From assembly GCA_031551405.1 (NCBI GenBank), contig JAVBNQ010000007.1:1-64000 (forward strand): 64,000 bases of DNA, written 5' to 3'. The notes under the pieces were generated by a model. The model did no database searches. It saw only the letters and a program-made list of their open reading frames with translations, and was not told the DNA's origin. Each line of letters begins with the position of its first letter. Position 1 is the first letter of the stretch. This DNA comes from a bacterium. GTDB taxonomy: Bacteria; RUG730. The translations under genes were made by a program, and so were the position numbers. Shown here piece after piece: positions 38,338 to 64,000 of the stretch.

Positions 38338-38354
38338 AGTTCCTCCTACGGTAT

Positions 38355-44311: not shown

Positions 44312-44448
44312 GTATTTTCTCCTTAATATCACGTTGTGAAAAATTGGCCGGTGTTTTGGTTCTTAATTTTAAGGTGGTAGAGCCAATGTTTTATTTTTTT
44401 AAGAGATGGTTTTGATTGGATGAGATTAAGATTTCGTAAGAGAAATTT

Positions 44449-44749: not shown

Positions 44750-44812
44750 TTTTTTGAAAATTCTCATTTTTTTCAAGACCTACAGCCATACTTGAAAGAC
44801 CCGGAGCAAGTA

Positions 44813-46282
44813 ATGCAAATTTATTTAGCTGGATATAATTTGGATGCTGAAATCATAAGGCGAATTAAAGAAATATGCCCCGATTTAGCTAGTAGCATCA
44901 CTCCGGAGACCATTTCCGCAGCTTATGCGAGGATTAGTCGCGATCCGCGTCCCATCAACGAACTCCGCAAAATATCTTCTCAAGAAATCGAAAAAACCAG
45001 AAAATCAAACGAAACAATAATTTTTGACATGGGTCACAGCTCTATTGCCGAGCACGCAGTTTTTAATTTTGATGTAATCGGCTTATCGAGGCTCGCGATA
45101 GAAGAATTGGAGAATTTTAGGCTAGCGTCATACACTGAAAAATCGCAAAGATACATTACTCTTGCAAATGATTTTATTATGCCAAAAGAAATCACAAATG
45201 ATGACGATATTCGCGAGTTTAGACGAATTATTGCGCTCCAAAATAATTTTTATCACGCGATTTATGATGATTTAAAAAAATACGTTTTTGCAAAACACAG
45301 AGACTTAGCGGAAAACGATAAGAATGCCAGACTTTTGGAAGGTTGGGCAAAAGAAGACGCGAGGTATATTTCATCTTTGGCGACGGAAGGGCAGCTTGGG
45401 ATGACGATCAATGCTCGGAGTTTGGAGCTGATGCTACGAAGATTAAATGCTTCGAAGCTCGAAGAAGCTAGAAGTCTTGGAGAAAGATTTTATAATGAAG
45501 TAAAAAACATTGCTCCATCACTCGTTAAATATGTGCAGGCTTCGAGTAATGATTTAAATAAATATGAAAATTTGAATAAGTTTTTGCTTGATTTGAAGAC
45601 GAACAAAGATGCGATTGATGGCTGTGAAGTAAAACTTTTAAATTTTACAAATAACGCGGATGACTTGATTTTGGCCAGCCTCCTACATAGACAAAGCGAA
45701 ATTTCGTTACAAGAAATTTTGGAAAATGTAAAGTCTTGGACAAAAGAAAGAAAACTTGAAATTTTTAAGGATAGCTTCCAGGATTTAAAGTTTTACGATA
45801 CAATGACTAGAGAATTCGAGTTTGTGGATTTTACGTTTGAGCTTGAAATATCAGCAGCTTGTTTCGGTCAAATTAAAAGACACAGAATGACGAGCATCAC
45901 AACGCAGGCTTACAATATTGATTTAGGAGTCAAGATTCCTGATTCCATTGTTGAGGTTGGCTTCAAAGACGAGTTTTTGAAAATAATTGACGAGACAAAT
46001 CGAGTTTACTTGAAATTAAAGAAAAACTATGGACAAAAAATTGCCGAATATATTTTAACTAACGCTCATAAGCGAAAAGTTTTTATGAAGATGAATTTGC
46101 GTGAACTTTATCATTTTTCACGATTGAGGGAAGATGCGCACGCTCAGTGGGACATTCGAAATATTGCCGGCAAAATGACAGAATCTGTAAAAAAAGTAGC
46201 GCCTATCTCAACTTTTTTGCTTTGCGGGAAAGATAGATTTCAGGAGTTGTACGCAAAAATTTATGGAGAGAAAAAATGTTAG
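44813..46282 (+). CDS. thyX: FAD-dependent thymidylate synthase with tandem ThyX domains (start set at ATG 44813)
   Basis: GHSSIAEH, SYTEKSQRY, KEDARY and INARSL in domain 1; KRHR, MNLREL and HAQWDIR in domain 2. Confidence 0.85.
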   Translation: MQIYLAGYNLDAEIIRRIKEICPDLASSITPETISAAYARISRDPRPINELRKISSQEIEKTRKSNETIIFDMGHSSIAEHAVFNFDVIGLSRLAIEELENFRLASYTEKSQRYITLANDFIMPKEITNDDDIREFRRIIALQNNFYHAIYDDLKKYVFAKHRDLAENDKNARLLEGWAKEDARYISSLATEGQLGMTINARSLELMLRRLNASKLEEARSLGERFYNEVKNIAPSLVKYVQASSNDLNKYENLNKFLLDLKTNKDAIDGCEVKLLNFTNNADDLILASLLHRQSEISLQEILENVKSWTKERKLEIFKDSFQDLKFYDTMTREFEFVDFTFELEISAACFGQIKRHRMTSITTQAYNIDLGVKIPDSIVEVGFKDEFLKIIDETNRVYLKLKKNYGQKIAEYILTNAHKRKVFMKMNLRELYHFSRLREDAHAQWDIRNIAGKMTESVKKVAPISTFLLCGKDRFQELYAKIYGEKKC

Positions 46283-47568: not shown

Positions 47569-47739
47569 AGATAAAAAATTTATTCGACAGTGAAAATAAA
47601 AATATATTAAGAATTTCGATATAAAACAAAAAAAGTTTGACATTTTTTTAAAAAAAGATATTTATATAGCTAGAGTCTAGATAAGAAAGCTACTATTTTA
47701 TATTTTTGTTAATTGAAAAATATTTAATAAGAGGTTTTT

Positions 47740-48414
47740 TTGATGAACAAAAGAATAATTTTTAGTCTTTTAACCGCGTTCATCCTAGTTACTAGTCTGT
47801 TTTCAGCTACCAAATATAAAATTTTATCTTGTAATCCTAACGTAATCGAACAAGGTGAGCAAGATATTACCTTGAATCTAGTAACAAATTCCCCTATGCC
47901 ACAAAAATCCAATAACGAGTATTTGTACTCGGAGATCCAATTCTCAAATCCAGGCATTCATATTCAAGAAGTTTTTTTTCAAAATGCGTTAATCATAAAC
48001 TGTAAAGTTTCATTAGATAAATACGTAGACGAGACTAAGCCCGTTGATATTTCAATTATAGGTTATGACGAGCAAGGGAATGATTTTATTTATGAAGGCA
48101 AGAAATTATTGACGATAAAAAGGAGGCCATTCATAGATAAAGTGATAGTACATAAAGCGGATGGTGCTATTATCCCTGGAGAAGAAGCTAATATTACACT
48201 AAAAGGCTATAATTTTCAGTCAGGGAAAATTGGTATACTTTTGATGTGGTCAGGACTTCCTCTAATTAATACCGCTTGCGATAATTCAAGACAATTGCGA
48301 TTCTCTCTGACAGCAGAACAAACAAAGCAAATAAAGCCCGGTGGATACAGTATTTATATTTACAATAGAGATGGATCCGGTTGTCAGTCTAGTGAAAAGG
48401 TATTAGTTTCCTAA
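47740..48414 (+). CDS. Secreted protein with two IPT/TIG-like domains
   Basis: Signal peptide; ILSCNPNVIEQGEQ and IIPGEEANITLKGYNF motifs resemble the repeats of the downstream giant protein. Confidence 0.65.
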   Translation: MMNKRIIFSLLTAFILVTSLFSATKYKILSCNPNVIEQGEQDITLNLVTNSPMPQKSNNEYLYSEIQFSNPGIHIQEVFFQNALIINCKVSLDKYVDETKPVDISIIGYDEQGNDFIYEGKKLLTIKRRPFIDKVIVHKADGAIIPGEEANITLKGYNFQSGKIGILLMWSGLPLINTACDNSRQLRFSLTAEQTKQIKPGGYSIYIYNRDGSGCQSSEKVLVS

Positions 48415-48447
48415 GTTCCCTAATAAAAAACAAAGGATTAAAAATCG

Positions 48448-51400
48448 ATGTTTAACAAAATGAAAAAAGTAATCTTTTCATTTTTAGTTTTGTACTTCAT
48501 TTTAATAGCTTTTGTGTTTGCTACTGTGACCGCAACTCCCTCACAAGTTACGCAAGATGATACAATAACTATTAGCGTGTATATTGATGGAACCGGAGTA
48601 AAAGAACCTACTACCGAAGTAATGTATAATCCAACTTTTGTAGTTGAGGGCTTTTCTTCAGAAGAAGAAGTTTCTTTTAGAAACAGAGGTTTATTGCAAG
48701 GAAAGTTCAAAGTCCTACGTAACGCAAACATAGGTAACCATACAGTAACTGTTTATGCTATTACAGGAGCTGCGTCGGGCTCCTCTAATAGAGCAACTTT
48801 AAGTGATTCTGTTATTTCAATAGGAACAACAACTATAAAGGTTATTTCAAAACCTATGATATTAGGTGTTTCTCCTGGAGCTACTTTTCAGCAAGCTAGT
48901 AAAGCGATTACGTTTTATGGAAAATATTTTGATACGAGCGGTGCTTCTATGGTGACAATTTCTGGCGCAGGTGTTTCGGGGACGGTTACGCCGACTACTA
49001 CCTCGGTTGCGCCTACCTTTAATTTGTCAAATGGTACGCCTGGTGGTCCTTATTCAATCCAAATTTTGAGTAACGACGGTGGAGTTGGTTTTTCTGATGA
49101 TGGCTCCGGAAATCCTACGCCTATTTTTACTCTTTACCCTGCTCCAAGTGTTATTAGTGTAAATAGAGCTAGCGTTTATCAGGCGCAAGAAAGTGTTGAG
49201 ATGCGGATACGTGGGACGGGATTTCATGCTCAAAGCAGTGTAGATCTAGGAGCAGGTATTTCTATACTCGGTGTGACTTCAAATGCTGATGGAGGCGAAA
49301 TTACAGTAAATTTTAATGTTGATAAAAATGCAACATTGGGAAATAGGACTTTAACTGTTTATAATCCGGATGGCGCAGCCGGTACTGCGAATAAAGCCAC
49401 TTTCGTCATAAATAGTTTTGTAACGCAAAAACTTACTCCAAACGTTAATGCAGGTATAAGTACTACTACGGTAGTTCAGGGTTTTAAGGGAGATATTACA
49501 ATAAAAAGCGTATCTGGGGCCGGAAATGGGTTCGACGATTTAGCAGTATCTGAAGTTTTAGTGAGTGGAGAAAATATTACGGTTTCAAAAGTTGTTTTTG
49601 TAGATACATCTACATTAAAAGTAAGTCTAATCGTAGAGCCGACAGCTGAGATTGGAGATAGAGCGGTAACAATAAAAAATCTGAGCTATAAAACTTTATC
49701 AACTTATACATTGAAAGTAGAAAAAGCTCCGGAAGCAAAATTGGAAGACGTAAATATATCCGTTTCACCGGCAAGTTTGTATCAGGGCGAATTTGCGACA
49801 GTCACTGTCACTTGCGCAAATGGAGCGGCATTTGAGTCAGGGGCAAATCTTAAAGTAACTGCCTCAGATGGAATAACTATAAAAAATATTACCTACATGA
49901 GTTCTACAACTTTGTGGTGTTACTTGAAAATAGATGAAAAAGCGCAAGTCGGTGAAAGAACATTTACCGTTGAAAATGTTTCTTATAAAGTTCAAAAGTC
50001 TACTTACATTACGATATTAGAATCCGATTTTAATAAGCTTGCGATAAATGCGATTTCTCCTAACGAGTTATACCAAGGGCAATCTGCAACAGTCACTGTA
50101 ACGGTCGCCGGTAAAATAGAAAACACAGCAGAAGTTTCTTTTAAGGGAATAGGCATTACCCTTAATGGTTATACAAAAAAATCCGATGCAGAGTTATGGT
50201 TGGATGTGACAGTTGACAAATTATCAAGCTTAGGGCAACATGCTTTTACTATAAAGAATCCAACTTATGAGAAAACTGTGACGGGTTTTATTAACATAAG
50301 TACATCTTCTTACTCAAATCCTTTCATAGACACAATCACAGACAGAATTTTGTATCAAGGCGAGCAAAAACAAATCGTTGTAACAGGTAGAGGCTTTCGA
50401 GCTCTTACAGTATTTACTTTCTCGGATCCAGGAATTGTTATTCAACAAGATACTATTGTAATCGAATCTCCGACAAAAGCTATATTGACGGTAAACATTC
50501 CGATTGATCTGGAGCCAAAATCATATGCTTTGGTCGTGAAAAATACTGATTTTGAGGCATCGTTTATTAAGCAGGATGCTGTAGAGGTAAGAGAAAAACA
50601 CTCAATTAGCTCCATAAGCCCGCAAATGCTTGCTCCCGGAACCAGTGAATATTTTTATATCAACGGTACAAATTTTGATCTCAATAGTGCATTTAAGATT
50701 TTTGTAGATGGGAAAGTAGTTGTTAATTCAACTTCGACTACAACTTATGATCAGATAGTTTTTGTTTCAAGTCGATGTGTAAGTAAAAATCAGATTGCTT
50801 GTAGCGTTTTAATTAGCTCGGATGTAAAAGCAGGAATCCATGATATTGGATTATATTTTGAAAGTAATGGAGCTACAATTACGCAGCGAGGTATCTTAAA
50901 TATTCCAAATAGACCGGTTATTACGAACATACCTAGCACTTTAAGTCAAGGAGATAATAATAAGGAAGTTACGATTCAGGGGCAGAATTTTGAGAATGGA
51001 GCAACTGTCGTGATTAGCGGTTCCGGAATTATTATTACCTCAGTCACTGTAATTTCAAGCAATATTATGACTTTTAGATGCGATGTGTCAAAAGACGCAG
51101 AAAGAACAGATAGGCAAATAAAAGTAATAAACCCAACAGGTCAATTCGCAACCGGGCTTGTTAAGGTAATTTCGCCGCCGATCATAGAAAGTTGTAGTCC
51201 ATCGAACGTGATGAAAGGAACAACTCGTTATTTAGAAATCTCAGGGCAAAATTTTAGTGAATTTTTCGACTTAAATTTCAGTGGACGTGTTACGACTACA
51301 ACTCCACATTCTGATGATGCAATCAATATTATTAGCGTTAAATATACTGGAAACACACAACTTTTAGCAGAGGTTTATATAGGAACCAACGTTATAAACG

Positions 51401-54400
51401 GTATGCACGACATCATGGTTGTGAACTACGAGGACTCTACAAAGGCTTCGATTCAATCGCAAGGAATAGGAGCTGGCTTATTAGACGTCAGAACTCCGCT
51501 CAAAATAAGCACCAGCACGATTACAACTGTACCGGCTGGATATTCGGGAAAAGTGATCGCAATTAGAGGAGAAGGGTTTTCAAAAAATTCAGTTATAAGT
51601 ATTAATGGTTCAGGGATTACGATTACTCACAATAATTTTATAAATACACAAGAAATAGAGATTGTGATAGATGTTGCAGCAAATGCACCTTTAGGACGCA
51701 GAACTGTAACTATAAAAGATAGTGATAATTCTGCATATGCCTCAATTTTGGATGTAATTCAAGCTGTTACCATCAACTCGGTTACTCCAATAAACATTCC
51801 AATTGGACTTCGTCACGCTACAATGACAGTAGTTGGACTTGGAATCGATATTCCTACTACGACTATTGTTACAAAAAATGGGGTGAAAGGAATTGACCCA
51901 GGAAATTACGTTGAAATTCTAGGCGGTGGAATTGATTCATTGGTAATTGATTCAACTACTTACAGCTCTACAAGCATGACTTTGTATTTTCAGGTTTTTT
52001 CGACCGCTACGGTTGGAAGTCGCGATATTAGAATTACAAATAAGGACTCAGAGAATATTTTATTCAAACAAGCAGCATTTAATTTAGTAGAATCGATTAA
52101 AATAGATTTATTCAGCCCGACAGATTATCAAATAGCCGGTGCAGTTGTTGATTTTAAAATAATAGGATCTGGCTTTGATCCTACAAATAACTACGGCGTT
52201 GACGGAAGTACAATTATTTTTTCAAATCCAAACGTCTCAATCACGGCTATTAACTATAGAAGCGGGAGTGAGATCAGTGGACAATTTACATGGCTTGACC
52301 AAACTGCCGTAATTACAAACCGAAGCGTAGATTTAAAAGTTGTGAATAAAGATGGCTCGATTGGTACAAAAAAAGGCGCGCTTTATCTTGTCGAACAGCT
52401 TGAGGTTATAGATGCCTCTCTTACACCTACAACAATTCCTGTTAATGCAAAAAATTATGTTGTTAATATTAAAGGAAAAGGCCTGATCAAGGGGGTTACA
52501 GCGTATTTTTATTTAGATGGGCCTCCTCAAGATTTTTCTAAGATTGTTTCAAAAAAATTGGAATATATAGATACTACGGAGATGAATTTATATATCGATA
52601 GTGATGCAGGGATTGCAGATGGAGCTCTTGCTACATTGGTTGTGACTAATCCAAATGGTGCTTCAGTGGAAAAGAGCGGAATTTTTGTAGTGAAAAATGT
52701 ACCTACAATTCATTCATTTGTTCCGGACTATATAAGAGTTGGCGGAGAAAAAGACGTTGTGATACAAGGAGCAAACCTAAACTTAGTTACGAGATTAGAA
52801 TTTAGTAATGGATTATATATTACTACGACTAGTATTACATCCGGGGAAATTAGGGGACGAATTAAAACAACGGCTGGTACATATCCAGGCGATGTAACTG
52901 TAAAATTATATACGGCCACGGTAGGAAATGAAGGTATTGCTAGGAAACTATTCAAAGTTTTGGAAGGGCCAAAGATTAGAGAAGTTTTGCCTAATATTTT
53001 GTATGCAGAAAAAGAGGTCCAATTTTATGTAAATGGTGACAATTTCGATGAAAATATAAAGATGGTGATAAGAAATATAAAGGATGGTAGCACAGATTAC
53101 ATTCACATGAACGATTCTACATCACTTGGAATCAGAAAGAGTACGACTAGAATTATTTTAGAAAAGTTGAAAATCGATAAAGAAGGGGAATATAGTCTTG
53201 AGTTGATTAATCCAGACGGTAGCTCTGTAAAACAAGATGTCTCTTTGACGGTTTATCCTCAGGCGACGCAGGCTCAAATCTTCAGTCTTTCTCCCCCTTA
53301 TGGTAAACCAAAAGAAACAAATAAAATTATAGAAGTGACCGGCAACAATTTTTTACCAGGAATGACGGTTTATGCCCAAGGAGCTGGAATTACGGTAAGC
53401 TCGTATACAGTCTACACAACGTCTGCTTCGTTGACTTTAGAAATAGCTGAAACAGCAGAGGTTGGCGAATACGGTATAGCCTTTTTGAATCCATTCTCAT
53501 CGCCAACAATTAAGAAATTTTACATAGTGGATGCACCGGTTGTAGAGTCAATTTATCCTGATAAATTGCAAAAAGGAACGACAAACCAGATCACAGTTAA
53601 AGGTAGAAATTTTATGTATACTGGTGGATCTGATGGTGGTGATATAGCTCTTGCTATAAATAGCAGTGATGGTGTAAGTATTTTTGGCATGAATTTCATA
53701 GGAACTACGGAATTAAAAGCCTATGTTTTTGTTTCAGAAAATGCTGTAACTGGTAAAAAAGATTTGGTAGTTACAAATCCTTTTGGTGTAAATGGAACAG
53801 GTCGAGGATTAATAAATATTGAGGATAGAATAGAGTTTAATAACATAAATCCAAGTACATTGACTCAAGGAACAAAAAATAAAGATCTAGTAATAAATGG
53901 AAAAGGTTTCAAGGAAGAAACAAAAGTAGAGTTTGTTCAGACCGGAATTATTCTAAATAAAACGACATATATTAATGACAACCAGTTATCAGTAAATGTT
54001 ACTGTTGCTGACGATGCCGCAGTTGGAAATGTAGATGTACGAATAATTAACGATGAGTACAATAACTTGGTTGCCAACAAAGTTTTCAGTATTGTCCCAA
54101 GGATTAGAGTTGAAAAAATTAATAACAATATTTTATATAGAGGGAAAGGTACAGCTTACGGAGATGATGTTATTGTTGAAATTATAGGAAGTAATTTCAC
54201 GCTTAGTACGAGCTCAAACATTGTTTCAGAATGTAAAGTTGAACTTATTGGCGCAGACAATGAAATTCAGGTTGTCAAAGTTGAAACAAAGAGCTCTGGA
54301 AATATTTTTGCTTATATAAAAACAAATCAAACCGCAAAACTTGGCTTTGTAGATATGAAAATTATTTGCAATAGTGATAAACGAGAATTGATTGTTTCCA

Positions 54401-57400
54401 ATGCTTTTGAAGTTGTAGACAAAATTAAAATCAACAATGTTACTCCATCGAATATAATGCTTCTAAAGAATGCATTTAATATCACAAATTCTGGAGCAGT
54501 AGCTACTTATTCTATAAGCGTTACTCACTTAACTCTTTCCGGAGTTGCGCCAATTTTGCTAGCTGGGAAAACAGTCGATCAGCTGATTTCGGCCATAAAT
54601 GCTGAAGCTGGATGGACAGCAACTCTTTCTAGCTCTCAAGCAGGAAGGCAGCCGGCTACATATTTAAAAACTGTTGGGACTACTGACGTTGCCAATGGTA
54701 AAACAAGCATAGCGAGCTTTACGAAGAATGGTATTTTTGACAATAGTGGTAGTGAAGTTACTTTGAATATCGCAGGAAGTGGTTTCGCAGCCGGGATTAA
54801 CGATTCAAAACTTTTATTTTCAGGTAATGGCATTTCTATTACTAACACCAATTTTGTAAGTGATAAAGAATTAACTGCAAAAATTACATTTGATCCTGCG
54901 TTAATTTTAGCGGGTAAACGAGACCTTACAATTACAAATTTAGATAATACTTTTGGAATCGCAGCCGGTATAGTCGAGTTTGTAGAGCCTCTTGAAGTAA
55001 GTCAAGTAAGCCCTCAGACTTTGGCTAGAGGTGCAGTAAAAGCTCCGATTACAATAAAAGGAAAAGGTTTTAGCGATAATTTATTGGTGACGTCAGGTTC
55101 CAGTTTGGTTTCTGTTTCAGATTTTAAATGCATAAGTCGTGACGAAATAAGCTTTAAAGTTACTATTGATCCAACATTTATATCGCCTACAAATATTTTT
55201 ACTTTGAAAAGCGCGACTGGAGAAAGTGTTCCTGCATCGATAAATGTTGAGCAATTGCCGGTTATTACGAGCGTTGTACCTAACGAACTCGGACAAGGCG
55301 CTTCAACTTGGATTACAATAAGCGGTTATAAACTCGCGAATATAATAACGCTGAATAATATTTTGTTTAGTCAAAACGACATAAGTATTCTAGATATGAA
55401 AGATTTTTCAGATACTGGTTTCAAGGTGTTAGTGAATGTTTCAAAATCAGCTCAATTGGGAGACAAAACAGTAACTCTTAAAGATTTTGTTATTGGTAAA
55501 GAAAATACTAACTCCGGAGTACTGTCAATTGTTGCCGAGCCAAGTATAGTTTCATTTAATCCAGATACATTATTCTTGGGGAGCGTTGGAGAGATTATAT
55601 TGAAAGGAAGCGGTTTCGTAAATGGAACCATACTTAAATTTTCGTCTCCGGATATAAAAGCGACAGGATACCAATTCTTTAATAATACTGAAATGAAAGC
55701 AACCTTGAATATAAGCAGCGTTACAATTCCTGCATTATACGACGTTGAAATAGTAAATCCGGATAGAAGCAATAATTATTATTCCGGTCTATTTAACGTT
55801 GTTGATCCGGAACGTATAATTACTTCTAGTCCAATAATCACAGGAATAAGCGTAGCTGCTCTTACTCAAGGTGCCACCTACACAGTATTTTTGGAAGGTG
55901 AGAATTTCTTAAAAGGAACAAACGTATCTTTCAGTAATAACGACGGGTTATTTATTAGTAATATTAATGTTTTGGGAAGCAAGGATATAACGTTTGATAT
56001 TTTTGTTTCGACGACTTCAAAAGTAGGTAAGCACGACATAAGCGTCATTACTAATAACGGCACTGTAACTGCGACTGGACTCCTCAATATCGTTTCGCCA
56101 CTAAAACTGGATAGACTCGATCCAAAAGTCTTGTCAAGGGGAACAAAAAGTAGAGACGTTTGGATTTATGGAGCCGGATTTGATGATACTACCAAGTGTT
56201 TGGTGGATGGCGATGGTGTTACAATAGAAAACACGTATTATTTAACGGACAAACTTTTACGTATTGTAGTAACTATAAGTGAGAGCGCGGTTTTGGGCAC
56301 AAGGAAAGTATCGCTTGTCAATGGCAATGGCTCAAAAGTAGAAGTAGAAGGCGCGATTGATATTATACCAGCGGTGACTGTCACAAGAGTGAGTCCGGAT
56401 AAAGTTGGAATTGGTTCTTTGTTGGAAAGAATTGAAATCGAAGGAACTGAATTCAGACCTAATTTGGACGTAAAAATACTTGGCTCCGGGGTTTCAGTCT
56501 CAAGCATAGAATTCAGAAGTGATACTCAAGTAAACGCGTATATTTCTGTTAGTCAAGATGCTTCAGCGGGTTCACGAGATATTAGAGTTATTAACAAAGA
56601 TGGAAATGAAGGAATTGGCAAAGGTGTTCTTACTCTAGAAAGTTTTGTAAAGGTTAATTCGATGGTAAGCGAAGGAGCGAATGTTAATTATTTTACGTTG
56701 ACACCAGGCACAACACATCAAGAAATAATCATTCGTGGTGATGGCTTTAGACTAGCAAATGATTTGGTGACAAAGCCAACTATCAGTTTTTCATTGCCAT
56801 ATTTAAGTATAGAACCAGGTACCATGAGATTTATGAATAGTGCAGAATTGAGAGCAACATTGTGGGTGGATACAGGATCTGCTCATGGTGGAGATAAAGT
56901 GGACGTCCGAGTCACAAATCCCGATGGAACAACAGGGCTTGGCAAAAATCTTTACATTATTTCTGAGCCTCTAGCATTGAGACAAGTGATCCCAAACATG
57001 CTAGGAGCTGGAGCACAAAATGAGACGCTATCGATTAATGGACAAGGATTTATTGATGGAATAAAACTGGAGTTTTTTGAAAAAAATCACATTACAATTC
57101 ATTCGATAAAATATATTAATGCAAATCAAATAGAGGCAAAAGTTAGTATCGACGAAGCAATGACAGTAGGGTATGCTACTTTTAGCGTAATAAATCCGGG
57201 GAATGTAAAGCTTACAACAAGCACACTATTTAGTATTGAGGAATGCCCGGTGGTTAATCTTGTAACACCTGATCATTATGCTCAAGGCGCTCTCAATCAA
57301 AATATAAAGATTGGCGGAAGATTGTTTGATATAAATAGCACTACAGTCACAATAAGTGGCGGTGTAACCGTTGCTTCTACTACAGTGGAAAGCTCAACGT

Positions 57401-60400
57401 CTATTATCGTAAATGTAAGCGTTGATAAAAGTGCTGCTGTTGGAGCTAAAGATATTATTGTTGAGTCTGGTGGAAAAGTTGGAATTGGTCGAGGAGTGTT
57501 TAAGGTCGTTGATGCTCCTACGATTTTGGAAGTAATTCCTAATACGATTGCTCAAGGAGCGCAAAATAGAGTTATTGAAATAAAAGGGCGCGGTTTTGTT
57601 TCTAAGTCGTCTGTCACTGTCAATATCCCCGGTTTAGTTGTAAATAATGTTGCAATTTACAGTGGAGAGAAAATAAGTTTGACTGTGAGCGTTGACAGTA
57701 TAACGAGTAGTCCAAATTATTATGACATAAATATTGCAAATCCGGATGGAAGTTCTGGGGTAGGTACTAGAGTTTTGCAAATAAAAGAGCCGCCTACGCC
57801 GCCGGTCATGATTAGTATTATTCCTAAAATGATGGCAGCAGGATCAAGCAATCAAAATATAATCATCGAGGGACAGAATTTGCAAGATGGAATCAATATG
57901 ATCATTTCCGGAGGAGGAGTAACCGTTTCTACTGTAAATCGTAGTGTAGAGAGTCCGTCGACTAGAGTTTATGCTACAATTTCGATTGATGCCGGAGCTG
58001 TTATTGGGAAACGAGATGTTTTATTTGTGAATCCAGATGGCGGATTCAAAACATATGCAAAAGAGTTTGAAATTATTACAAATCCGGTCATAGATTCCAT
58101 GGATCCAAGCGTAGTTATTAAAGATACTACTACGGCAAAAACTATAAAAGAGATAAATATTATTGGAAAAGCATTTAGCGAATACAGCATAGTTGAATTT
58201 ACCGGAGGTGGAATTACAGTTGATAGCTTTACATTTGTTGGTGAAGACCACTTGAGGATCGACATTACTGTGGCTACTAATGCTTTATCCGGATATCGTG
58301 ATGTGATAGTTAATAACCCATACGGAATGTCAGGTAAAAAAGAAGGTCTCTTTAGAATTTCTGAACCGGTTGTGATTACAAAAATTACTCCAAATCAAGC
58401 AAGCCAAGGCGTAATAAATAAAGAAATACGTATTGAAGGAACGAATTTTATGGAAGGCGCGAGTTTGGATTTCAGCGGTAGTGGAATTACGGTTTCATCG
58501 CTTAATGTTGTATCAAGTAGCTTGATTTTAGGGCGACTGGATATTGCAGATACAGCAACCACGAGCAAACGTAAAGTTACGATCATTAATAGAACAGGCG
58601 CAAGTTCAATGGAATCTGGTACTGATATGTTTGAGGTTACGCCAAAACCTTCGATTACAGAGGTTTATCCAAAATCGTTAGAGCAAGGCACAAGCAGCTG
58701 GATTACGATAAAAGGTAAAGGTTTCTATCAAGGAATGTTGGTTCAGCCGATTGTGACAGTTTCTGGCGAGGGAGTTTCTGTAAGTAGCGTACAATATAAT
58801 GGAGAAGCAGATGTTCAAGCATTCGTGATTGTATCAAGTGTTGCTGTTAGAGGGATGCGAGATGTTATAGTTCAAAATACGGACTCGAGCTCGACGACTA
58901 TCCGTGGCGAAGCGATGCTTGAAATTATCGAGCTTTTAAATTTAAAAAGTATTAACTTAACAAAAATTCCTCGAGGTGATAAATCTAGACAAATTATTTT
59001 GAATGGTGGTGGATTTGAGGAAAACGCAAAAATTACTTTCTCGGGAACAGGCATTACAGTTAGCACAGTTTCCTGGAAGAGCAGCAACCAGTTGGTCGCA
59101 GTAGTAGACGTTGATATTAATGCTGAGATTGGATTGAGAAGTGTAACAGTCGAAAATCCAAATACCAAAAAAGTAACGCTAAACAGTGTATTACAAGTTG
59201 TTGATCCAATATTTATTGCAACTTTGGAACCTAGCGAGCTTGGAGTGGGAGTTGCAGACAAAGAAATAAGAATTAAAGGAACAGGTTTTGAACCAAATTC
59301 TACAGTTGTAATTTCTGGGGATGGAATTGTTTACTCGACCGTGAGTTGTTCTGCTACTGAGATTATCTTAAAAGCGTCTGTAACAGTTAATGCGACTTTG
59401 GGTTTTAGAAGCATTGAAATTCAAACTCCGGAAGGAAACAGAGGAAAACTCGAGAAAGCAATCAATATTATCAATCACATAAATATCACTGAAATTTCTC
59501 CAAAATATATTGAAAAAGGATTTAATGGAACTGTTTACATTAAAGGTTATAATTTCGACGTTACCAGCGGAATAAAACCTGTCGTTCAAATCTCCGGTGA
59601 TGGACTAGTTGTGGGCGTAGTTACGGCGGTCAGCTCTACAGAGTTGCAAGTACACTTGACAGTTCAAAATACTGCTACTATAGGAACAAGAGATGTTACA
59701 ATTACAAATGCTGACGGAGCAAAGGGTTTTGGAAAAGGCGGTATTGAGATCACAGATGCGCTTAGCTTTGCAAGGCTCGAGCCAAATAATCTCGGCAAAG
59801 GTGCAAAAAATGAAATTGTTTGTCTTTATGGAAAAGGCCTTGTCGAAGACACAAAACTGGAGTTTAGCTCGTTAGACGTGGTTGTTTCGTCATTGCAGTA
59901 CATTAGTAACGATCAATTGAAGCTTACGATATCTATACCGGAAGCAGCAGCAACCGGAGCAGTTGACTTACTTATAAAAAATCCAAATAATATAAATGTT
60001 CCTATTGTGGGAGCATTTAGTGTTACCGACTCTCCAACAATTACAAAAGTTGAACCAAGCGAAATTGCTCAAGGCGCACTTAATCAGGAACTCAAAATAA
60101 CCGGAACAAATATCAGTGCAAATGCAACATTTGCAGTTAGCGGCCTTGGAGTAAATATTTCGAGCATGAACATAATTGATTCGCGTACTATGAAGGTATG
60201 GGTTAATGTTAAGAAAACGGCTACAGTTGGCGATAGAGACGTTGTAATAACGAATACTCTTGCAGCGACGAGCTCTTTTGGTATTGGTAAAGGTTTGTTA
60301 AAAATAATTGACGGGCCAAGTATTGAAACAGTGTCTCCTGAAATCATCGCTCAAGAAGATGTCAATAGAATTATTGAGTTGAAAGGAAAAGGATTCAAAC

Positions 60401-62259
60401 CTGGACTCAAGTTGGAAATTGTAGATGCAGTTGGCGTTCACATTTCCAGTTTGAACTATGTAAGTAGCGAGATTTTGCAAATTTTGGTCAATGTTGATAA
60501 TGATGCTCCGACGAGGGTTTATGACATAAAAGTTACGAATTTGGATTCTGGACAAGATACGCGTTTTAATGCTATAAAAGTTGTCCACCCTCCTAGAGTC
60601 GTGTCTGTTAATACGCCAATCGTGCAGAAAGGCGATATTGAAAAAATGATTGAAATTACCGGAAATAATTTTGAAATGGGAGCTGCAGTTTATATTGGAG
60701 ATATGACGACTAGTACGGTAACGTATGTTTCATCTTCAAAATTGATAGTGAAAGTAATTGTTGCACAAAATGCAACCGAAGGCGCAAAAGATATTACTGT
60801 AATAAATCCAAACGGCATTGTTGGAATCGGAAAAAGTTTGATAAAAATAGTGGAAAAAATGCCGATTATCAAAAATGTGACTTTAACATCTAAATCAATT
60901 GAGTACGAGAAAATTTCGTCTGCAATTAATCCTTTATTAAACGGAGTAAGTTTTTATTATGAATTGGTGCGTTCTGCAAAATCAGTTGAACTTGCAATTT
61001 ATAGAAGTTCAGAACTTCAGCCGGGTCAGGAAGTAAAACGAGTCATAAGAAGCAACTTACAAGCAGGTGTATATAACAATATTTATAATGCGGACAAAGT
61101 ATTTTACTGGGATGGATCGATTGAGTACAAGAAAAAAGATGATGGAAGTTCTGATTTGAAGAAGGAAAATGGCGATTATAGGTGTGTAATAAGAATTACT
61201 TCCGACGAAGGACAGGTTGAAGAATGGACGGAAACTATTACAGTTGATGTTGTAAACATTAACGATCAATATGTGGAATATACTTTGATGGGGCAAGAAA
61301 ATGTAAAAGTTTCTCCTTATAAGTTGCATTATACATTGTCAAAACCTGCGTATACAAAACTTGAAATTGTAAATAGTTCAGGCACACTTGTTCGAGAGTT
61401 TGGCACTGAATTGTCAAGCAAAGGTGAGAATGTGAAGATATGGGATGGAAGAGATCTTAATGGTGTAAGGCTTTCAAAGGGTATTTATAAAGTTATTCTA
61501 TCAGCATACGATACATCAAATCCTGTTGATGAAGCTAATATAAAGAATATCGCAATCTCTGTGGATCAATTAGTAGTAGCCGATGTAAAAATAGATTCTA
61601 TCCGAGCAGACAAACCTGAAACCACAATAAGTTTTGTTCCATCAGAAACCATGAGAGTAGATTTGGTGATCTACAAACCAAAAACAATGCTTGGAACAGC
61701 AACAAATGGATCAGGCACTGTTGTGCCAAGCCCATCTGGAACAGAAGTTAAGGTCTTCAACTTGTATGTTGAGAAGGGAACAACTTATCAAGTTACGTGG
61801 GGCGGGAAAAATGATAGGGGAGATATGCTTGTTGACGGTGATTATCCATTTGCAATTACGGGTAAAGACAGCCATGGTATCGTTATGGGGCAGCCTTACA
61901 TTAGCGTTATAGCGATTAATAGAGCAGCTAATTTGGAAATGAGACGTGAGATGTTCAAGAAAAATTCGTATGCATATCCTAACCCGGTTGATTTCAAAAA
62001 AGTCAAAGTTGCAAAAATCAATTATGGCATTAACAATATGTCGAATCTGAATTTGTATATTTATGATGTTTTGGGTAATATTGTCTGGGAAAAGCGGTTG
62101 GATAATGTGGATATAGGAGAGGGACAAATAAATTGGGCTCTCATAAATAATGGCGGAAAAGAAGTTGGTCGTGGATTGTATGTTTATGTCCTGGAAGCAG
62201 AAGAAATAAATACCGGTAAAAAATTAAAAACTACAAATAAAATAATGGTGATAAAATAA
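48448..62259 (+). CDS. Giant secreted surface protein (4603 aa): ~42 IPT/TIG-like repeats, three FlgD-Ig-like domains and a T9SS type A-like C-terminal domain
   Basis: Signal peptide; ~100-aa repeats P-x-I-x-x-V-x-P...QG...I-x-G-x-x-F...G-x-R-D-V-x-V-x-N-P; WDG..NG..GxY FlgD-type motifs; terminal YAYPNP...IYDVLGNIV...GLYVYVL...KIMVIK. Confidence 0.88.
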   Translation: MFNKMKKVIFSFLVLYFILIAFVFATVTATPSQVTQDDTITISVYIDGTGVKEPTTEVMYNPTFVVEGFSSEEEVSFRNRGLLQGKFKVLRNANIGNHTVTVYAITGAASGSSNRATLSDSVISIGTTTIKVISKPMILGVSPGATFQQASKAITFYGKYFDTSGASMVTISGAGVSGTVTPTTTSVAPTFNLSNGTPGGPYSIQILSNDGGVGFSDDGSGNPTPIFTLYPAPSVISVNRASVYQAQESVEMRIRGTGFHAQSSVDLGAGISILGVTSNADGGEITVNFNVDKNATLGNRTLTVYNPDGAAGTANKATFVINSFVTQKLTPNVNAGISTTTVVQGFKGDITIKSVSGAGNGFDDLAVSEVLVSGENITVSKVVFVDTSTLKVSLIVEPTAEIGDRAVTIKNLSYKTLSTYTLKVEKAPEAKLEDVNISVSPASLYQGEFATVTVTCANGAAFESGANLKVTASDGITIKNITYMSSTTLWCYLKIDEKAQVGERTFTVENVSYKVQKSTYITILESDFNKLAINAISPNELYQGQSATVTVTVAGKIENTAEVSFKGIGITLNGYTKKSDAELWLDVTVDKLSSLGQHAFTIKNPTYEKTVTGFINISTSSYSNPFIDTITDRILYQGEQKQIVVTGRGFRALTVFTFSDPGIVIQQDTIVIESPTKAILTVNIPIDLEPKSYALVVKNTDFEASFIKQDAVEVREKHSISSISPQMLAPGTSEYFYINGTNFDLNSAFKIFVDGKVVVNSTSTTTYDQIVFVSSRCVSKNQIACSVLISSDVKAGIHDIGLYFESNGATITQRGILNIPNRPVITNIPSTLSQGDNNKEVTIQGQNFENGATVVISGSGIIITSVTVISSNIMTFRCDVSKDAERTDRQIKVINPTGQFATGLVKVISPPIIESCSPSNVMKGTTRYLEISGQNFSEFFDLNFSGRVTTTTPHSDDAINIISVKYTGNTQLLAEVYIGTNVINGMHDIMVVNYEDSTKASIQSQGIGAGLLDVRTPLKISTSTITTVPAGYSGKVIAIRGEGFSKNSVISINGSGITITHNNFINTQEIEIVIDVAANAPLGRRTVTIKDSDNSAYASILDVIQAVTINSVTPINIPIGLRHATMTVVGLGIDIPTTTIVTKNGVKGIDPGNYVEILGGGIDSLVIDSTTYSSTSMTLYFQVFSTATVGSRDIRITNKDSENILFKQAAFNLVESIKIDLFSPTDYQIAGAVVDFKIIGSGFDPTNNYGVDGSTIIFSNPNVSITAINYRSGSEISGQFTWLDQTAVITNRSVDLKVVNKDGSIGTKKGALYLVEQLEVIDASLTPTTIPVNAKNYVVNIKGKGLIKGVTAYFYLDGPPQDFSKIVSKKLEYIDTTEMNLYIDSDAGIADGALATLVVTNPNGASVEKSGIFVVKNVPTIHSFVPDYIRVGGEKDVVIQGANLNLVTRLEFSNGLYITTTSITSGEIRGRIKTTAGTYPGDVTVKLYTATVGNEGIARKLFKVLEGPKIREVLPNILYAEKEVQFYVNGDNFDENIKMVIRNIKDGSTDYIHMNDSTSLGIRKSTTRIILEKLKIDKEGEYSLELINPDGSSVKQDVSLTVYPQATQAQIFSLSPPYGKPKETNKIIEVTGNNFLPGMTVYAQGAGITVSSYTVYTTSASLTLEIAETAEVGEYGIAFLNPFSSPTIKKFYIVDAPVVESIYPDKLQKGTTNQITVKGRNFMYTGGSDGGDIALAINSSDGVSIFGMNFIGTTELKAYVFVSENAVTGKKDLVVTNPFGVNGTGRGLINIEDRIEFNNINPSTLTQGTKNKDLVINGKGFKEETKVEFVQTGIILNKTTYINDNQLSVNVTVADDAAVGNVDVRIINDEYNNLVANKVFSIVPRIRVEKINNNILYRGKGTAYGDDVIVEIIGSNFTLSTSSNIVSECKVELIGADNEIQVVKVETKSSGNIFAYIKTNQTAKLGFVDMKIICNSDKRELIVSNAFEVVDKIKINNVTPSNIMLLKNAFNITNSGAVATYSISVTHLTLSGVAPILLAGKTVDQLISAINAEAGWTATLSSSQAGRQPATYLKTVGTTDVANGKTSIASFTKNGIFDNSGSEVTLNIAGSGFAAGINDSKLLFSGNGISITNTNFVSDKELTAKITFDPALILAGKRDLTITNLDNTFGIAAGIVEFVEPLEVSQVSPQTLARGAVKAPITIKGKGFSDNLLVTSGSSLVSVSDFKCISRDEISFKVTIDPTFISPTNIFTLKSATGESVPASINVEQLPVITSVVPNELGQGASTWITISGYKLANIITLNNILFSQNDISILDMKDFSDTGFKVLVNVSKSAQLGDKTVTLKDFVIGKENTNSGVLSIVAEPSIVSFNPDTLFLGSVGEIILKGSGFVNGTILKFSSPDIKATGYQFFNNTEMKATLNISSVTIPALYDVEIVNPDRSNNYYSGLFNVVDPERIITSSPIITGISVAALTQGATYTVFLEGENFLKGTNVSFSNNDGLFISNINVLGSKDITFDIFVSTTSKVGKHDISVITNNGTVTATGLLNIVSPLKLDRLDPKVLSRGTKSRDVWIYGAGFDDTTKCLVDGDGVTIENTYYLTDKLLRIVVTISESAVLGTRKVSLVNGNGSKVEVEGAIDIIPAVTVTRVSPDKVGIGSLLERIEIEGTEFRPNLDVKILGSGVSVSSIEFRSDTQVNAYISVSQDASAGSRDIRVINKDGNEGIGKGVLTLESFVKVNSMVSEGANVNYFTLTPGTTHQEIIIRGDGFRLANDLVTKPTISFSLPYLSIEPGTMRFMNSAELRATLWVDTGSAHGGDKVDVRVTNPDGTTGLGKNLYIISEPLALRQVIPNMLGAGAQNETLSINGQGFIDGIKLEFFEKNHITIHSIKYINANQIEAKVSIDEAMTVGYATFSVINPGNVKLTTSTLFSIEECPVVNLVTPDHYAQGALNQNIKIGGRLFDINSTTVTISGGVTVASTTVESSTSIIVNVSVDKSAAVGAKDIIVESGGKVGIGRGVFKVVDAPTILEVIPNTIAQGAQNRVIEIKGRGFVSKSSVTVNIPGLVVNNVAIYSGEKISLTVSVDSITSSPNYYDINIANPDGSSGVGTRVLQIKEPPTPPVMISIIPKMMAAGSSNQNIIIEGQNLQDGINMIISGGGVTVSTVNRSVESPSTRVYATISIDAGAVIGKRDVLFVNPDGGFKTYAKEFEIITNPVIDSMDPSVVIKDTTTAKTIKEINIIGKAFSEYSIVEFTGGGITVDSFTFVGEDHLRIDITVATNALSGYRDVIVNNPYGMSGKKEGLFRISEPVVITKITPNQASQGVINKEIRIEGTNFMEGASLDFSGSGITVSSLNVVSSSLILGRLDIADTATTSKRKVTIINRTGASSMESGTDMFEVTPKPSITEVYPKSLEQGTSSWITIKGKGFYQGMLVQPIVTVSGEGVSVSSVQYNGEADVQAFVIVSSVAVRGMRDVIVQNTDSSSTTIRGEAMLEIIELLNLKSINLTKIPRGDKSRQIILNGGGFEENAKITFSGTGITVSTVSWKSSNQLVAVVDVDINAEIGLRSVTVENPNTKKVTLNSVLQVVDPIFIATLEPSELGVGVADKEIRIKGTGFEPNSTVVISGDGIVYSTVSCSATEIILKASVTVNATLGFRSIEIQTPEGNRGKLEKAINIINHINITEISPKYIEKGFNGTVYIKGYNFDVTSGIKPVVQISGDGLVVGVVTAVSSTELQVHLTVQNTATIGTRDVTITNADGAKGFGKGGIEITDALSFARLEPNNLGKGAKNEIVCLYGKGLVEDTKLEFSSLDVVVSSLQYISNDQLKLTISIPEAAATGAVDLLIKNPNNINVPIVGAFSVTDSPTITKVEPSEIAQGALNQELKITGTNISANATFAVSGLGVNISSMNIIDSRTMKVWVNVKKTATVGDRDVVITNTLAATSSFGIGKGLLKIIDGPSIETVSPEIIAQEDVNRIIELKGKGFKPGLKLEIVDAVGVHISSLNYVSSEILQILVNVDNDAPTRVYDIKVTNLDSGQDTRFNAIKVVHPPRVVSVNTPIVQKGDIEKMIEITGNNFEMGAAVYIGDMTTSTVTYVSSSKLIVKVIVAQNATEGAKDITVINPNGIVGIGKSLIKIVEKMPIIKNVTLTSKSIEYEKISSAINPLLNGVSFYYELVRSAKSVELAIYRSSELQPGQEVKRVIRSNLQAGVYNNIYNADKVFYWDGSIEYKKKDDGSSDLKKENGDYRCVIRITSDEGQVEEWTETITVDVVNINDQYVEYTLMGQENVKVSPYKLHYTLSKPAYTKLEIVNSSGTLVREFGTELSSKGENVKIWDGRDLNGVRLSKGIYKVILSAYDTSNPVDEANIKNIAISVDQLVVADVKIDSIRADKPETTISFVPSETMRVDLVIYKPKTMLGTATNGSGTVVPSPSGTEVKVFNLYVEKGTTYQVTWGGKNDRGDMLVDGDYPFAITGKDSHGIVMGQPYISVIAINRAANLEMRREMFKKNSYAYPNPVDFKKVKVAKINYGINNMSNLNLYIYDVLGNIVWEKRLDNVDIGEGQINWALINNGGKEVGRGLYVYVLEAEEINTGKKLKTTNKIMVIK

Positions 62260-63227
62260 TGACAAAAAAAATTAAATTAACAATCGTTTTACTTTTACTT
62301 GTCTTATTTTTAAATGCTACTTTATGTGCAAAACAGGCTAGCGGAACAACAGATTTTCAATTTTTGAAATTAGACGTAGGCGCTAGGACTCTCGCGATGG
62401 GAGGAGCATTTGCCGGAGTTTCTGACGATATCTCTGCAATCCGTTATAATCCGGCGGGATTGCGACAATTGTCAAAAAAGGAAGCTTCTGCGACTCATAT
62501 GGAATGGATTGGTGATTTGAGAATTGAACATGTAGCATTTGCAATGCCATACAGCGTCAACAAAACTATAGGTACAAGTATTTTTTATATGACTACAAAA
62601 GACGACCTAATGGGACGTGATGAGTATGGAAAGCCTACGCATAATTTGAAGTTCGAACAAGTTTACGCAACTATTGGAGGGGCTACGCCTGTCGACCCGA
62701 TGACGGAAAAGCTTTTAGTTGGTGGGAACGTTAAATATGTTCAGGAAACACTAGACTACAGTAAAAGTACAGGTCTAGCTTTAGATGCTGGATTATTGTG
62801 GAATACTCATGATAATATGAGTTTTGGCTTAGTGGTGAGAAATCTTGGCATTAGCGACGGTAATTATCCGCTAGAAATAAGATTCGGCGGTAGTTACATT
62901 CGTCGTAATTTAGGTTTGAGCGCTGATTTGTATAAATTTAGAGATACTGACGTAAATTATGCGATTGGAGCAGAATATTTTATCAAAGATATGTTTGTTG
63001 TAAGAGCTGGATATAATTCAAGCCTTGGCTCTCTTGGCGAGTTGAATGAGGATGAAAGTTTATCGTCTTTTTCAGATTATTCGTTTTCCGGCCTTTCTCT
63101 TGGATTTGGTATTTTGACAAAACCGCTTAGTTTTTTAAATAAGCATTCTTTAAAATTTGATTATGCGATTGTTGATTACGGAAGATTAGGATTCACGCAT
63201 ATATTTACTTTATCCACTGAATTTTAA
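62259..63227 (+). CDS. PorV/PorQ-family (FadL-like) outer-membrane beta-barrel
   Basis: Signal peptide; FLKLDVGARTLAMGGAF..VSDD.SAI.YNPAGL signature; C-terminal Phe; start overlaps the giant gene stop (TAATG). Confidence 0.85.
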   Translation: MTKKIKLTIVLLLLVLFLNATLCAKQASGTTDFQFLKLDVGARTLAMGGAFAGVSDDISAIRYNPAGLRQLSKKEASATHMEWIGDLRIEHVAFAMPYSVNKTIGTSIFYMTTKDDLMGRDEYGKPTHNLKFEQVYATIGGATPVDPMTEKLLVGGNVKYVQETLDYSKSTGLALDAGLLWNTHDNMSFGLVVRNLGISDGNYPLEIRFGGSYIRRNLGLSADLYKFRDTDVNYAIGAEYFIKDMFVVRAGYNSSLGSLGELNEDESLSSFSDYSFSGLSLGFGILTKPLSFLNKHSLKFDYAIVDYGRLGFTHIFTLSTEF

Positions 63228-63232
63228 TAGAA

Positions 63233-63385
63233 ATGAAAGACAAAAAAGGGCAAGCTATTGTTGAATATGTGCTTTTGGTTTCGCTTGTAGCTTTAGCATT
63301 TGTGTCTACCACAGATTTTTTTAACAAAGCTGTTGAGGCGCTTTTCACAAAAATCGGAAATTCTTTCGCTCAGAAAGGTCCGTAA
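63233..63385 (+). CDS. Flp-type (type IVc) pilin, 50 aa, not in ORF track
   Basis: My translation: MKDKKG|QAIVEYVLLVSLVALAFVSTTDFFNKAVEALFTKIGNSFAQKGP; G|xxxxEY prepilin motif. Confidence 0.8.
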   Translation: MKDKKGQAIVEYVLLVSLVALAFVSTTDFFNKAVEALFTKIGNSFAQKGP

Positions 63386-63471
63386 ATAAATATCCCAAAA
63401 TAAGAAAGCACTGAGTGACAGTTCAAATTTAGTCACACTGTGAAAAAATAAAAATTTCCTGAGGAGGAAAA

Positions 63472-63627
63472 ATGAAACAAATAATGTTCAGAAAAAAAGG
63501 GCAAGGTTTAACAGAGTATATTTTGATTATTGCGTTGATCGCATTAGCGGCAATCGTATCTATCCAGGTTTTTGGTGAAAAAATAAAGGCAAAATTCACA
63601 GCCTTATCAGATACTCTCAGCTCATAG
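63472..63627 (+). CDS. flp: Flp pilin (probable major pilin), 51 aa, not in ORF track
   Basis: My translation: MKQIMFRKKG|QGLTEYILIIALIALAAIVSIQVFGEKIKAKFTALSDTLSS; strong GAGGAGG RBS. Confidence 0.9.
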   Translation: MKQIMFRKKGQGLTEYILIIALIALAAIVSIQVFGEKIKAKFTALSDTLSS

Positions 63628-63628
63628 G

Positions 63629-64000
63629 ATGAAGCAAAAAAAGTCTTTAAAAAATAAAAAAGCGCAAGCTATTCTTGAATTTACATTAGTTTTGATCCCG
63701 TTTTTTATTTTATTAATGGGAGCGATGCAGCTTTTGCATATAGCTGTGGTGAAATTATTAGTGAATCATGCCGTATTTACTACTGCAAGAGTCGCGTCTG
63801 TCACAGATAATAAAGATGAGATCACTTCGGCTGCCAAGAATTCGCTTATTTTTAAAGACAAAGAAAATATCACGGTTTATATTGTCGATCAAGCTTCTCA
63901 AGATGAAATACACGTAAAGCTTAATTATAAAATGGCGTTAATCTTTCCAATAGTAAACAAAATTATACAAGAAGCGAAAGGACTGCAGGATTATAAGTTA
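63629..64000 (+). CDS. TadE-like minor pilin, truncated by the window edge
   Basis: My translation: MKQKKSLKNKKA|QAILEFTLVLIPFFILLMGAMQLLHIAVVKLLVNHAVFTTARVASV...; open for 124 codons to the end of the window. Confidence 0.8.
   Translation, partial: MKQKKSLKNKKAQAILEFTLVLIPFFILLMGAMQLLHIAVVKLLVNHAVFTTARVASVTDNKDEITSAAKNSLIFKDKENITVYIVDQASQDEIHVKLNYKMALIFPIVNKIIQEAKGLQDYKL

Follow-up and report, generated by a model that had tools for sequence, protein, structure and literature searches.

The window analysed here is a stretch of 64,000 nt of bacterial DNA (assembly GCA_031551405.1, contig JAVBNQ010000007.1, positions 1 to 64,000 of the forward strand). From position 47,740 to its end it carries six genes, for a small IPT-like protein, a giant surface protein of 4603 amino acids, a barrel of the PorV/PorQ family, two Flp-type pilins and a TadE-like minor pilin. 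We lean, with some reserve, to the reading that they form a co-transcribed attachment locus made of two modules, a cargo protein with its anchor and a Tad/Flp pilus, which would cooperate through shared expression and not as one hybrid machine. By a similarly modest preference, we find it plainest to suppose that a long fibre and a pilus are expressed together for attachment.

The giant protein and its barrel

An original prediction, made from the letters of the window, had placed the six genes on one strand with very tight junctions, and both points held: all six open reading frames (ORFs) lie on the + strand (Table 1), the stop of the giant gene and the start of the barrel gene overlap by 1 nt in the motif TAATG, 5 nt separate the barrel from flp1, and 1 nt separates flp2 from tadE. 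The gap between flp1 and flp2 is 86 nt long and holds a single weak hairpin (−13.8 kcal/mol, z −1.89) without a U tract. Between 47.6 and 64 kb, no intergenic terminator-like site was found on the + strand. A scan for promoter consensus sequences was uninformative, with 63 sites versus 66.1 in shuffled sequences.

A scan of species-representative genomes with a profile of the barrel gave 9 loci from 59 pattern matches. The five closest, L001 to L005, have barrels 32–53% identical to that of the window; four bear the label Elusimicrobiota, the fifth no more than 'bacterium'. The barrel is in each case directly preceded by a CTD-bearing Ig/IPT-repeat protein (CTD, C-terminal domain) with a FlgD_ig/CHU_C/Por_Secre_tail-like tail. 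In four of the five relatives the gene pair shares 4 nt at the junction, and a gap of 164 nt separates the two in L005. The upstream protein exceeds 3300 aa in L003 and L004 and 1339 aa in L002, and counts 1322 aa in L005; the part visible in L001 is its last 181 aa. When the C-terminal 474 residues of the giant were used as query, two more giants were recovered, of 5274 and 4774 aa. This pairing, together with the overlapping gene ends, the family matches and the complex model reported below, supports the part of the original prediction that gave the giant protein a PorV-like barrel of its own.

The four more distant loci were of other kinds. In L006 (Spirochaetia, positions 1-1899), one ORF comprises a full PorV/PorQ barrel (130.7 bits versus 90), a FlgD_ig/CHU_C-like domain and an OmpA-type peptidoglycan-binding domain, a fusion of barrel and CTD-like domain that is reminiscent of PorP-PorE. 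L007 to L009 (Leptospiraceae, Nitrospira) were set aside: they encode larger or partial FadL-like proteins, and no CTD protein or pilus genes were recognised alongside.

The giant protein had been described as an IPT-repeat protein, and this description stands. A hidden Markov model (HMM) built from the protein itself delimited 42 immunoglobulin (Ig)-like repeats. The NCBIfam 'choice-of-anchor Z repeating domain' (CoaZ_rpt_PGGG) matched 21 stretches with 514.9 bits; Pfam TIG scored 116.6 bits and FlgD_ig 47.2 bits. A putative Sec-type signal peptide was recognised by eye at the N-terminus. The repeat array is broken by an insert of 139 residues (1960-2098, nt 54325-54741) to which the repeat model has no match, perhaps a hinge or a module for binding.

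The tail of the protein is T9SS-like (T9SS, type IX secretion system), as had been proposed. Taken alone, its last 119 residues matched the very ends of two models: positions 995-1094 of the 1095 of PorU (32.5 bits) and positions 669-757 of the 757 of PorZ (32.1 bits). All six CTDs, from the window and the five relatives, score higher on these PorU/PorZ tails than on the generic type A model TIGR04183, and a profile of the six tails found PorU (6za2, E=7e-4) and PorZ (5m11, E=0.037) in the PDB. Nine residues are invariant in the six tails: YPNP, G59, W79, G92, Y94 and K114. The type B model TIGR04131 gave no match to the tail at E<=1. According to PMC10947112 (section 3.3), neither PorU nor PorZ has its CTD cleaved, PorQ anchors PorZ, and the retained CTDs seat these proteins on PorV/PorQ. 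The CTD of the giant would thus, by its likeness to these tails, be a retained handle and not a cleaved signal.

A search with the CTD alone for longer proteins returned 1 protein among 145 candidates. The CTD profile also matched some proteins of 1300-2500 aa in which this fold recurs 9-15 times in tandem. Since the profile matches such tandem internal repeats, the terminal 'sorting' domain and the internal FlgD-Ig-like repeat belong to a single family, and a terminal CTD called by HMM is therefore ambiguous.

The barrel belongs to the PorV/PorQ family, which it matches over the whole model (NF033709, 125.7 bits versus 90, positions 1-326 of 326). The name first given to it, a PorV-family barrel, is right as to this wider family and too narrow if PorV proper is meant. 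It falls short of every equivalog cut-off: PorV (NF033710) 32.9 versus 250, PorQ (NF033711) 118 versus 220 and PorV2 61.6 versus 325, PorQ being the best-scoring of these models. The score on the PorP/SprF model (TIGR03519) is 16.2 bits versus 90.55. A search for homologues of the barrel (100 matches from 4260 candidates) yielded nine close ones at 47–59% identity and then others at 32% or less. The profile and complex work used an alignment of 10 close orthologues. With this ten-orthologue profile the sole significant match in the PDB was PorV of Flavobacterium johnsoniae (6h3i_F, E=4.3e-9). The AlphaFold2 (AF2) model of the barrel had a predicted template-modelling score (pTM) of 0.70. Compared with solved structures by Foldseek, it ranked two PorV chains first, from two SprA complexes (8gl6_F, E 3e-13; 6h3i_F, E 2e-12; template-modelling scores 0.66-0.67), followed by FadL, TbuX and TodX. 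The predicted fold is FadL-like with 14 strands, a count that is not firm at a predicted local distance difference test (pLDDT) of 66.7.

These FadL-type matches could mean that we are dealing with an ordinary channel of the FadL/UPF0164 type for hydrophobic compounds, or with a barrel that helps the Tad secretin, and that its place beside the giant has no functional meaning. Its best Pfam match is indeed UPF0164 (36.6 bits), followed by weak Toluene_X/FadL, and part of a preprint (10.1101/2025.01.03.631275) reads a PorV/PorQ-family protein of a spirochaete as a FadL-like transporter. We nevertheless hold this to be very improbable: the barrel stays with a CTD protein in all five relatives, the gene ends overlap in the window and in four of them, PorV ranks above FadL both by sequence and by fold, and the complex model passes its controls. 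A role as helper of Tad only is excluded, for the barrel also stays with the CTD gene in three relatives that have no Tad neighbours.

Binding of the tail by the barrel was modelled with barrel residues 25-322 and the CTD. The pair reached 0.87, versus 0.00 for the best of three controls, a pass that may reflect memory, as PorV-CTD complexes have been solved (8gl6). Of 80 solved complexes 58 attain the mark applied, as do 2 of 110 mismatched pairs. At least 87% of the contacts agreed between runs, the partner pLDDT was at least 85, and the CTD had a pLDDT of 86 within the complex. The modelled interface takes in seven of the nine invariant CTD residues (hypergeometric P=0.004). The model thus points, with the reservation on memory, to binding of the CTD by the barrel, which we propose as the anchor of the giant's CTD; the original prediction had the barrel anchor or shuttle the giant.

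The same parts can also be read as those of an ordinary T9SS cargo. On that account the barrel acts as a PorV-type shuttle, a PorU-like sortase encoded elsewhere cleaves the CTD, the giant becomes covalently fixed to lipid or lipopolysaccharide (LPS), and the Tad genes are mere neighbours. On the type A model TIGR04183 the CTDs stand near or above the cut-off of 23 bits, with 22.8 bits in the window, 24.7, 26.4 and 30.5 in the three relatives that pass and 22.7 and 22.6 in the two that fall short; the barrel matches solved PorV in fold and sequence; and CTDs of this type are very widespread, since a search of 1.84 billion representatives with the profile gave 59872 proteins at E<=0.001. The equivalog scores given above are, however, far below the PorV cut-off and higher for PorQ, and the CTD is nearest to the tails of PorU and PorZ, which are of the retained kind. 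Furthermore, a shuttle of many cargoes is not expected to be translationally coupled to one cargo gene in five of the six loci, and neither PorU nor another core gene was seen in the window. We therefore judge this account improbable.

The family scans took in 51 distinct ORFs of the window (outside the locus, those of 100 aa or more). Among them there was no SprA, PorK/L/M/N, PorU or other T9SS core gene, in agreement with the original prediction.

Tad genes beside the pair

The pilin genes were identified correctly from the start, although both Flp ORFs score below the gathering threshold of Pfam Flp_Fap. Their identity follows from the processing motif G/QxxxEY, present in both, and from orthologues in L003 and L004. 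TadE passes its threshold and is 56% and 40% identical to TadE of L003 and L004. The three loci share Flp1, Flp2 and TadE as orthologues in unchanged order, and the spacer between the barrel and flp1 is 2 nt in L003 and 22 nt in L004. After tadE, the clusters of L003 and L004 continue with CpaB (147.8 bits versus 71), a secretin and a TadZ-TadA protein of 725-727 aa; the last two genes encode a small membrane protein that is DUF3566-like and one that is BatD-like. By this orthology, the cluster of the window very probably continues beyond 64 kb with CpaB, a short secretin and a fused TadZ-TadA. Two features of these clusters (L003:12524-15502, L004:12798-15817) are unusual: the secretin is very short (258-260 aa), and a TadZ-like (CbiA/MinD) domain is fused to the TadA-like ATPase. 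At another place in the window (10323-12240, − strand) lie a MoxR AAA ATPase gene and a DUF58/VWA gene, a Bat-operon-like pair; a link with the BatD-like gene of the two Tad clusters is possible.

No platform gene was found within the L003 and L004 clusters. In the window, two genes with T2SSF domains, which the original prediction had not mentioned, lie about 10 kb from the pilin genes on the opposite strand, and may serve the same Tad system. The run to which they belong (32091-39875, − strand) comprises a histidine kinase, a response regulator, the two T2SSF genes, a tetratricopeptide repeat (TPR) protein, a sCache protein and a response regulator of HD-GYP type. This run likely supplies the platform and regulatory genes that the Tad system was missing. 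The TPR protein (34914-36101) may be TadD-like, an analogy that draws on passages of PMC6668835. Passages of that article also report Tad systems in Elusimicrobia. No prepilin peptidase TadV (Peptidase_A24) was seen among the scanned ORFs of the window or in the L003 and L004 clusters; it may lie elsewhere.

Tad genes follow the barrel in only two of the five relatives, L003 and L004, whose barrels are 53% and 39% identical to that of the window. Downstream of the barrel lie cinA, dus and acrB in L001, murJ in L002 and hydrogenase-like genes in L005. A conserved order of giant CTD, porV and flp, which would have spoken for the original prediction, is thus found for the CTD-barrel pair in all five relatives and for flp in two. 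Since the pair occurs without adjacent Tad genes in three of the five, it forms a module of its own, and the data fit a cargo-barrel pair that is separable from Tad. The Tad system is itself split in the window, so that the lack of Tad neighbours in L001, L002 and L005 is no proof that these genomes lack Tad.

A tree was built from 20 barrels, namely the six with known context and 14 database sequences; the remaining matches of the homologue search were left out, and two database proteins (P0006 and P0012) entered the tree as L003 and L002, to which they are identical. The barrel of the window is placed with L003 (Shimodaira-Hasegawa-like approximate likelihood ratio test, SH-aLRT, 95), and L001 and L002 form the sister group (99). 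L004 is a separate branch inside the same clade (100), and L005 lies outside. These groupings indicate that Tad adjacency follows lineage. They fit one old arrangement that was lost in one group, or a few gains, and the three Tad-adjacent loci (window, L003 and L004) are not three independent observations.

The adjacency bears on the idea of a hybrid machine, in which a Tad-type system with its secretin, resembling a type II secretion system (T2SS), exports a giant delivered by Sec, the PorQ-like barrel catches its CTD and keeps the fibre on the surface, and no T9SS takes part. We consider this unlikely, though it has several points on its side. Genes from the giant to tadE form one tight run on the same strand in the window, and in L003 and L004, despite the divergence of their barrels, the run is complete through tadZ-tadA. 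No T9SS core gene was seen among the window ORFs, and T9SS is described, in the parts of the literature drawn on here, as confined to Bacteroidota or the Fibrobacteres-Chlorobi-Bacteroidetes (FCB) superphylum. In Omnitrophota, according to part of a preprint (10.1101/2023.11.21.568195), giant genes are preceded by a conserved locus with gspD, gspE, gspF, rcpC and small genes with a class III signal peptide. Against it stand the three related pairs that have no adjacent Tad genes, although those genomes may carry Tad at another place, just as tadB/tadC are set apart here. A single inherited arrangement may underlie the three Tad-adjacent loci, and the families of the CTD and of the barrel are otherwise tied to SprA-type translocons. 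To our knowledge, no Tad system secretes a protein. The original prediction is therefore supported as to the dedicated barrel; export or display of the giant by Tad is possible, with an adjacency that is lineage-specific and seen in two of five relatives.

Export, anchoring and comparison with known systems

On the reading of two co-expressed modules, the giant would be exported across the inner membrane by Sec and form a long fibre of its 42 Ig-like repeats. Its retained CTD would dock, as a stable handle, onto the barrel made from the translationally coupled next gene. The second module would be a Tad/Flp pilus, with two Flp and TadE here, CpaB, secretin and TadZ-TadA beyond the window and TadB/TadC 10 kb off. 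Passage of the giant through the outer membrane would be left to a translocon encoded elsewhere in the genome. The role of the whole locus would be adhesive.

Several points weigh against this reading. At its central step the account is incomplete, as no outer-membrane translocon for a protein of 4603 aa was seen in the window. The tight adjacency of Tad genes, kept across barrels that are 39–53% identical, exceeds the strict requirements of loose co-regulation and would allow a mechanistic link. Gene spacing is all that suggests co-transcription. The CTD is borderline both on the generic type A model and on Pfam CHU_C (27.1 bits, cut-off 27), and AF2 folded it poorly when given the six CTD sequences alone (pLDDT 41.4, too low for a comparison with the Ig-like 3+4 beta-sandwich of T9SS CTDs). 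The pLDDT of the barrel model is only moderate. As for the complex, its input alignments were our own and thin (10 rows for the barrel, 6 for the CTD), memory may account for the pass, and the barrel side of the interface is not enriched in conserved positions (9 of the 82 invariant residues among 42 interface residues, P=0.87). Lastly, the source phylum is probably Elusimicrobiota, an assignment that follows how the barrel's nearest named homologues are labelled; there is no rRNA in the 64-kb window.

One close parallel is SprB-SprF of F. johnsoniae, a type B CTD cargo with its cognate PorP-like barrel. As reported in part of PMC9143113, the C-terminal region of SprB (669 kDa) is bound and anchored to the surface by the neighbouring SprF, a 14-strand barrel of the FadL family. 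There, as here, the gene of a giant repetitive surface protein lies beside that of a dedicated FadL-like barrel, the present case being known from genes and a model. The differences are that the window barrel is of the PorV/PorQ and not the PorP/SprF family, that the tail has no type B match, that the phylum is outside FCB, that no SprA or gliding genes are in view, and that Tad genes come after the barrel.

Another parallel is with PorZ-PorQ and PorU-PorV of Porphyromonas gingivalis, where a retained CTD is the handle in a FadL-like barrel; the window CTD is nearest to the PorU and PorZ tails and the barrel scores best on PorQ. Unlike these, the window cargo is a fibre of 4603 aa and not a sortase or an LPS carrier, and the barrel stays below the PorQ and PorV equivalog cut-offs. 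The Sov translocon, on which PorQ and PorZ rely, was not seen in the window.

Compared with Tad/Flp systems, the window shares Flp pilins with the G/xxxxEY motif, TadE and two single-domain T2SSF genes, and L003 and L004 share CpaB, secretin and a TadA-type ATPase. It differs in that its Tad genes are divided between two sites on opposite strands, and in that a giant CTD protein and a PorQ-like barrel precede the pilins; L003 and L004 differ in the fusion of TadZ with TadA and in their very short secretin, and no prepilin peptidase was seen.

A further likeness is with Omnitrophota, where a giant surface-protein gene lies beside a secretin/ATPase/platform/rcpC/class III signal peptide locus that part of the account cited above reads as an export and attachment apparatus. 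That phylum is another one, its proteins are far larger and have other domains, and the secretion locus is upstream there and downstream here. The parts of that account drawn on here make no mention of a T9SS-type CTD or a PorV/PorQ barrel. In the literature, we found no report linking a PorV/PorQ barrel with Tad genes and none of T9SS parts in Elusimicrobiota.

Anchoring of a CTD on a barrel is understood only within the T9SS of Bacteroidota. Here, the same two parts are a coupled gene pair in a phylum without a described T9SS, and in one lineage the pair is joined to a Tad pilus in a presumed operon. If the pair works without SprA, it would show how the attachment step of T9SS could have arisen, and would be a compact, two-gene means of displaying very large proteins on a diderm surface. 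A display independent of T9SS can be pictured further: a Tad-type machine with a minimal secretin would export the giant fibre, the PorQ-like barrel would capture the retained CTD, this handle would be older than T9SS and only later adopted by Bacteroidota, and Elusimicrobiota would possess Tad-like exporters of giant adhesins, in parallel to what is suspected in Omnitrophota. We think this rather unlikely. Were Tad to export the fibre, this would be, as far as we know, the first protein substrate of a Tad system, and it would tie in with the pairing of giant genes and pilus-like genes in Omnitrophota. If a normal T9SS is present elsewhere in these genomes, the finding shrinks to an extension of the range of T9SS.

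Other features of the window

Table 1. Coordinates of the locus and of associated features (positions in the window)
Feature	Position	Strand	Evidence
Probable promoter region: A/T-rich spacer 3' of serS (171 nt), TTGACA at 47637	47569-47739	+	reading of the sequence, inference only
Small IPT-like ORF (224 aa)	47740-48414	+	ORF call
Giant surface protein (4603 aa)	48448-62259	+	ORF call, Pfam/NCBIfam
Repeat array, 42 IPT/TIG-like ('choice-of-anchor Z') repeats, residues 28-4118	48529-60801	+	self-built HMM, NCBIfam, Pfam
FlgD-Ig-like domains before the tail, residues about 4130-4484	60835-61899	+	Pfam FlgD_ig, 2 stretches, best 4289-4355; FlgD models, 3 stretches
T9SS-type CTD, last 119 aa	61900-62256	+	PorU/PorZ model tails; PDB profile
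PorV/PorQ-family barrel (322 aa)	62259-63227	+	NF033709; PDB profile match; AF2/Foldseek; complex model
Flp-type pilin 1 (50 aa, G/QAIVEY)	63233-63385	+	Flp_Fap 24.5 bits (gathering 32.2); orthologues at the same position in L003, L004
Flp-type pilin 2 (51 aa, G/QGLTEY)	63472-63627	+	Flp_Fap 29.4 bits (gathering 32.2); Class_IIIsignal 23.1 bits; orthologues in L003, L004
TadE-like minor pilin, truncated at window end (124 of about 133-140 aa)	63629-64000	+	TadE 29.7 bits (threshold 22.9)
TadB/TadC-like platform protein (294 aa, one T2SSF domain)	36972-37856	−	Pfam T2SSF 63 bits (threshold 25.2)
Second TadB/TadC-like platform protein (277 aa)	36098-36931	−	Pfam T2SSF 66.5 bits
TPR protein encoded just past the platform genes, perhaps a TadD-like helper of the secretin	34914-36101	−	TPR_2 67.4 bits

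The first gene of the locus had been labelled an IPT protein, which is borne out in part. Its 224-aa product shows a weak likeness to the repeats of the giant (BLASTP E=0.001) and lies near IPT/TIG clusters by language-model features (score 0.93, a lead only), but it has no Pfam match at E<=0.01. Its N-terminus, judged by eye, is hydrophobic. It may, on this slight likeness, be a small secreted IPT-like protein. The ATG at 47743, preceded by AAGAGG, is a likelier start than 47740.

On the 5' side and the same strand, the locus is preceded by tRNA-Leu, a double-length thyX and serS. The thyX gene (44792-46282) encodes 496 aa, about twice the usual length, and the model matches two stretches of it, which suggests a tandem-duplicated ThyX. 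The remainder of the window consists of housekeeping genes of a diderm (LptG, TolQ/TolR, a heptose kinase, ribosomal proteins), at about 35% G+C. Three of the 51 scanned ORFs had no family match: 9866-10309, 47740-48414 and 27095-29107. The last of these (− strand, 670 aa), which has neither a Pfam nor an NCBIfam family, directly follows TolQ-TolR and could, by its position, be a divergent TolA-like protein. A protein of 252 aa (24221-24979, − strand) lacks a kinase domain, and its match is confined to the PASTA-repeat part of Stk1-type kinases. One protein of 729 aa (42143-44332, − strand) is a fusion that joins a CPA2 cation:proton antiporter to a phosphotransferase system (PTS) IIA (PtsN-like) domain.

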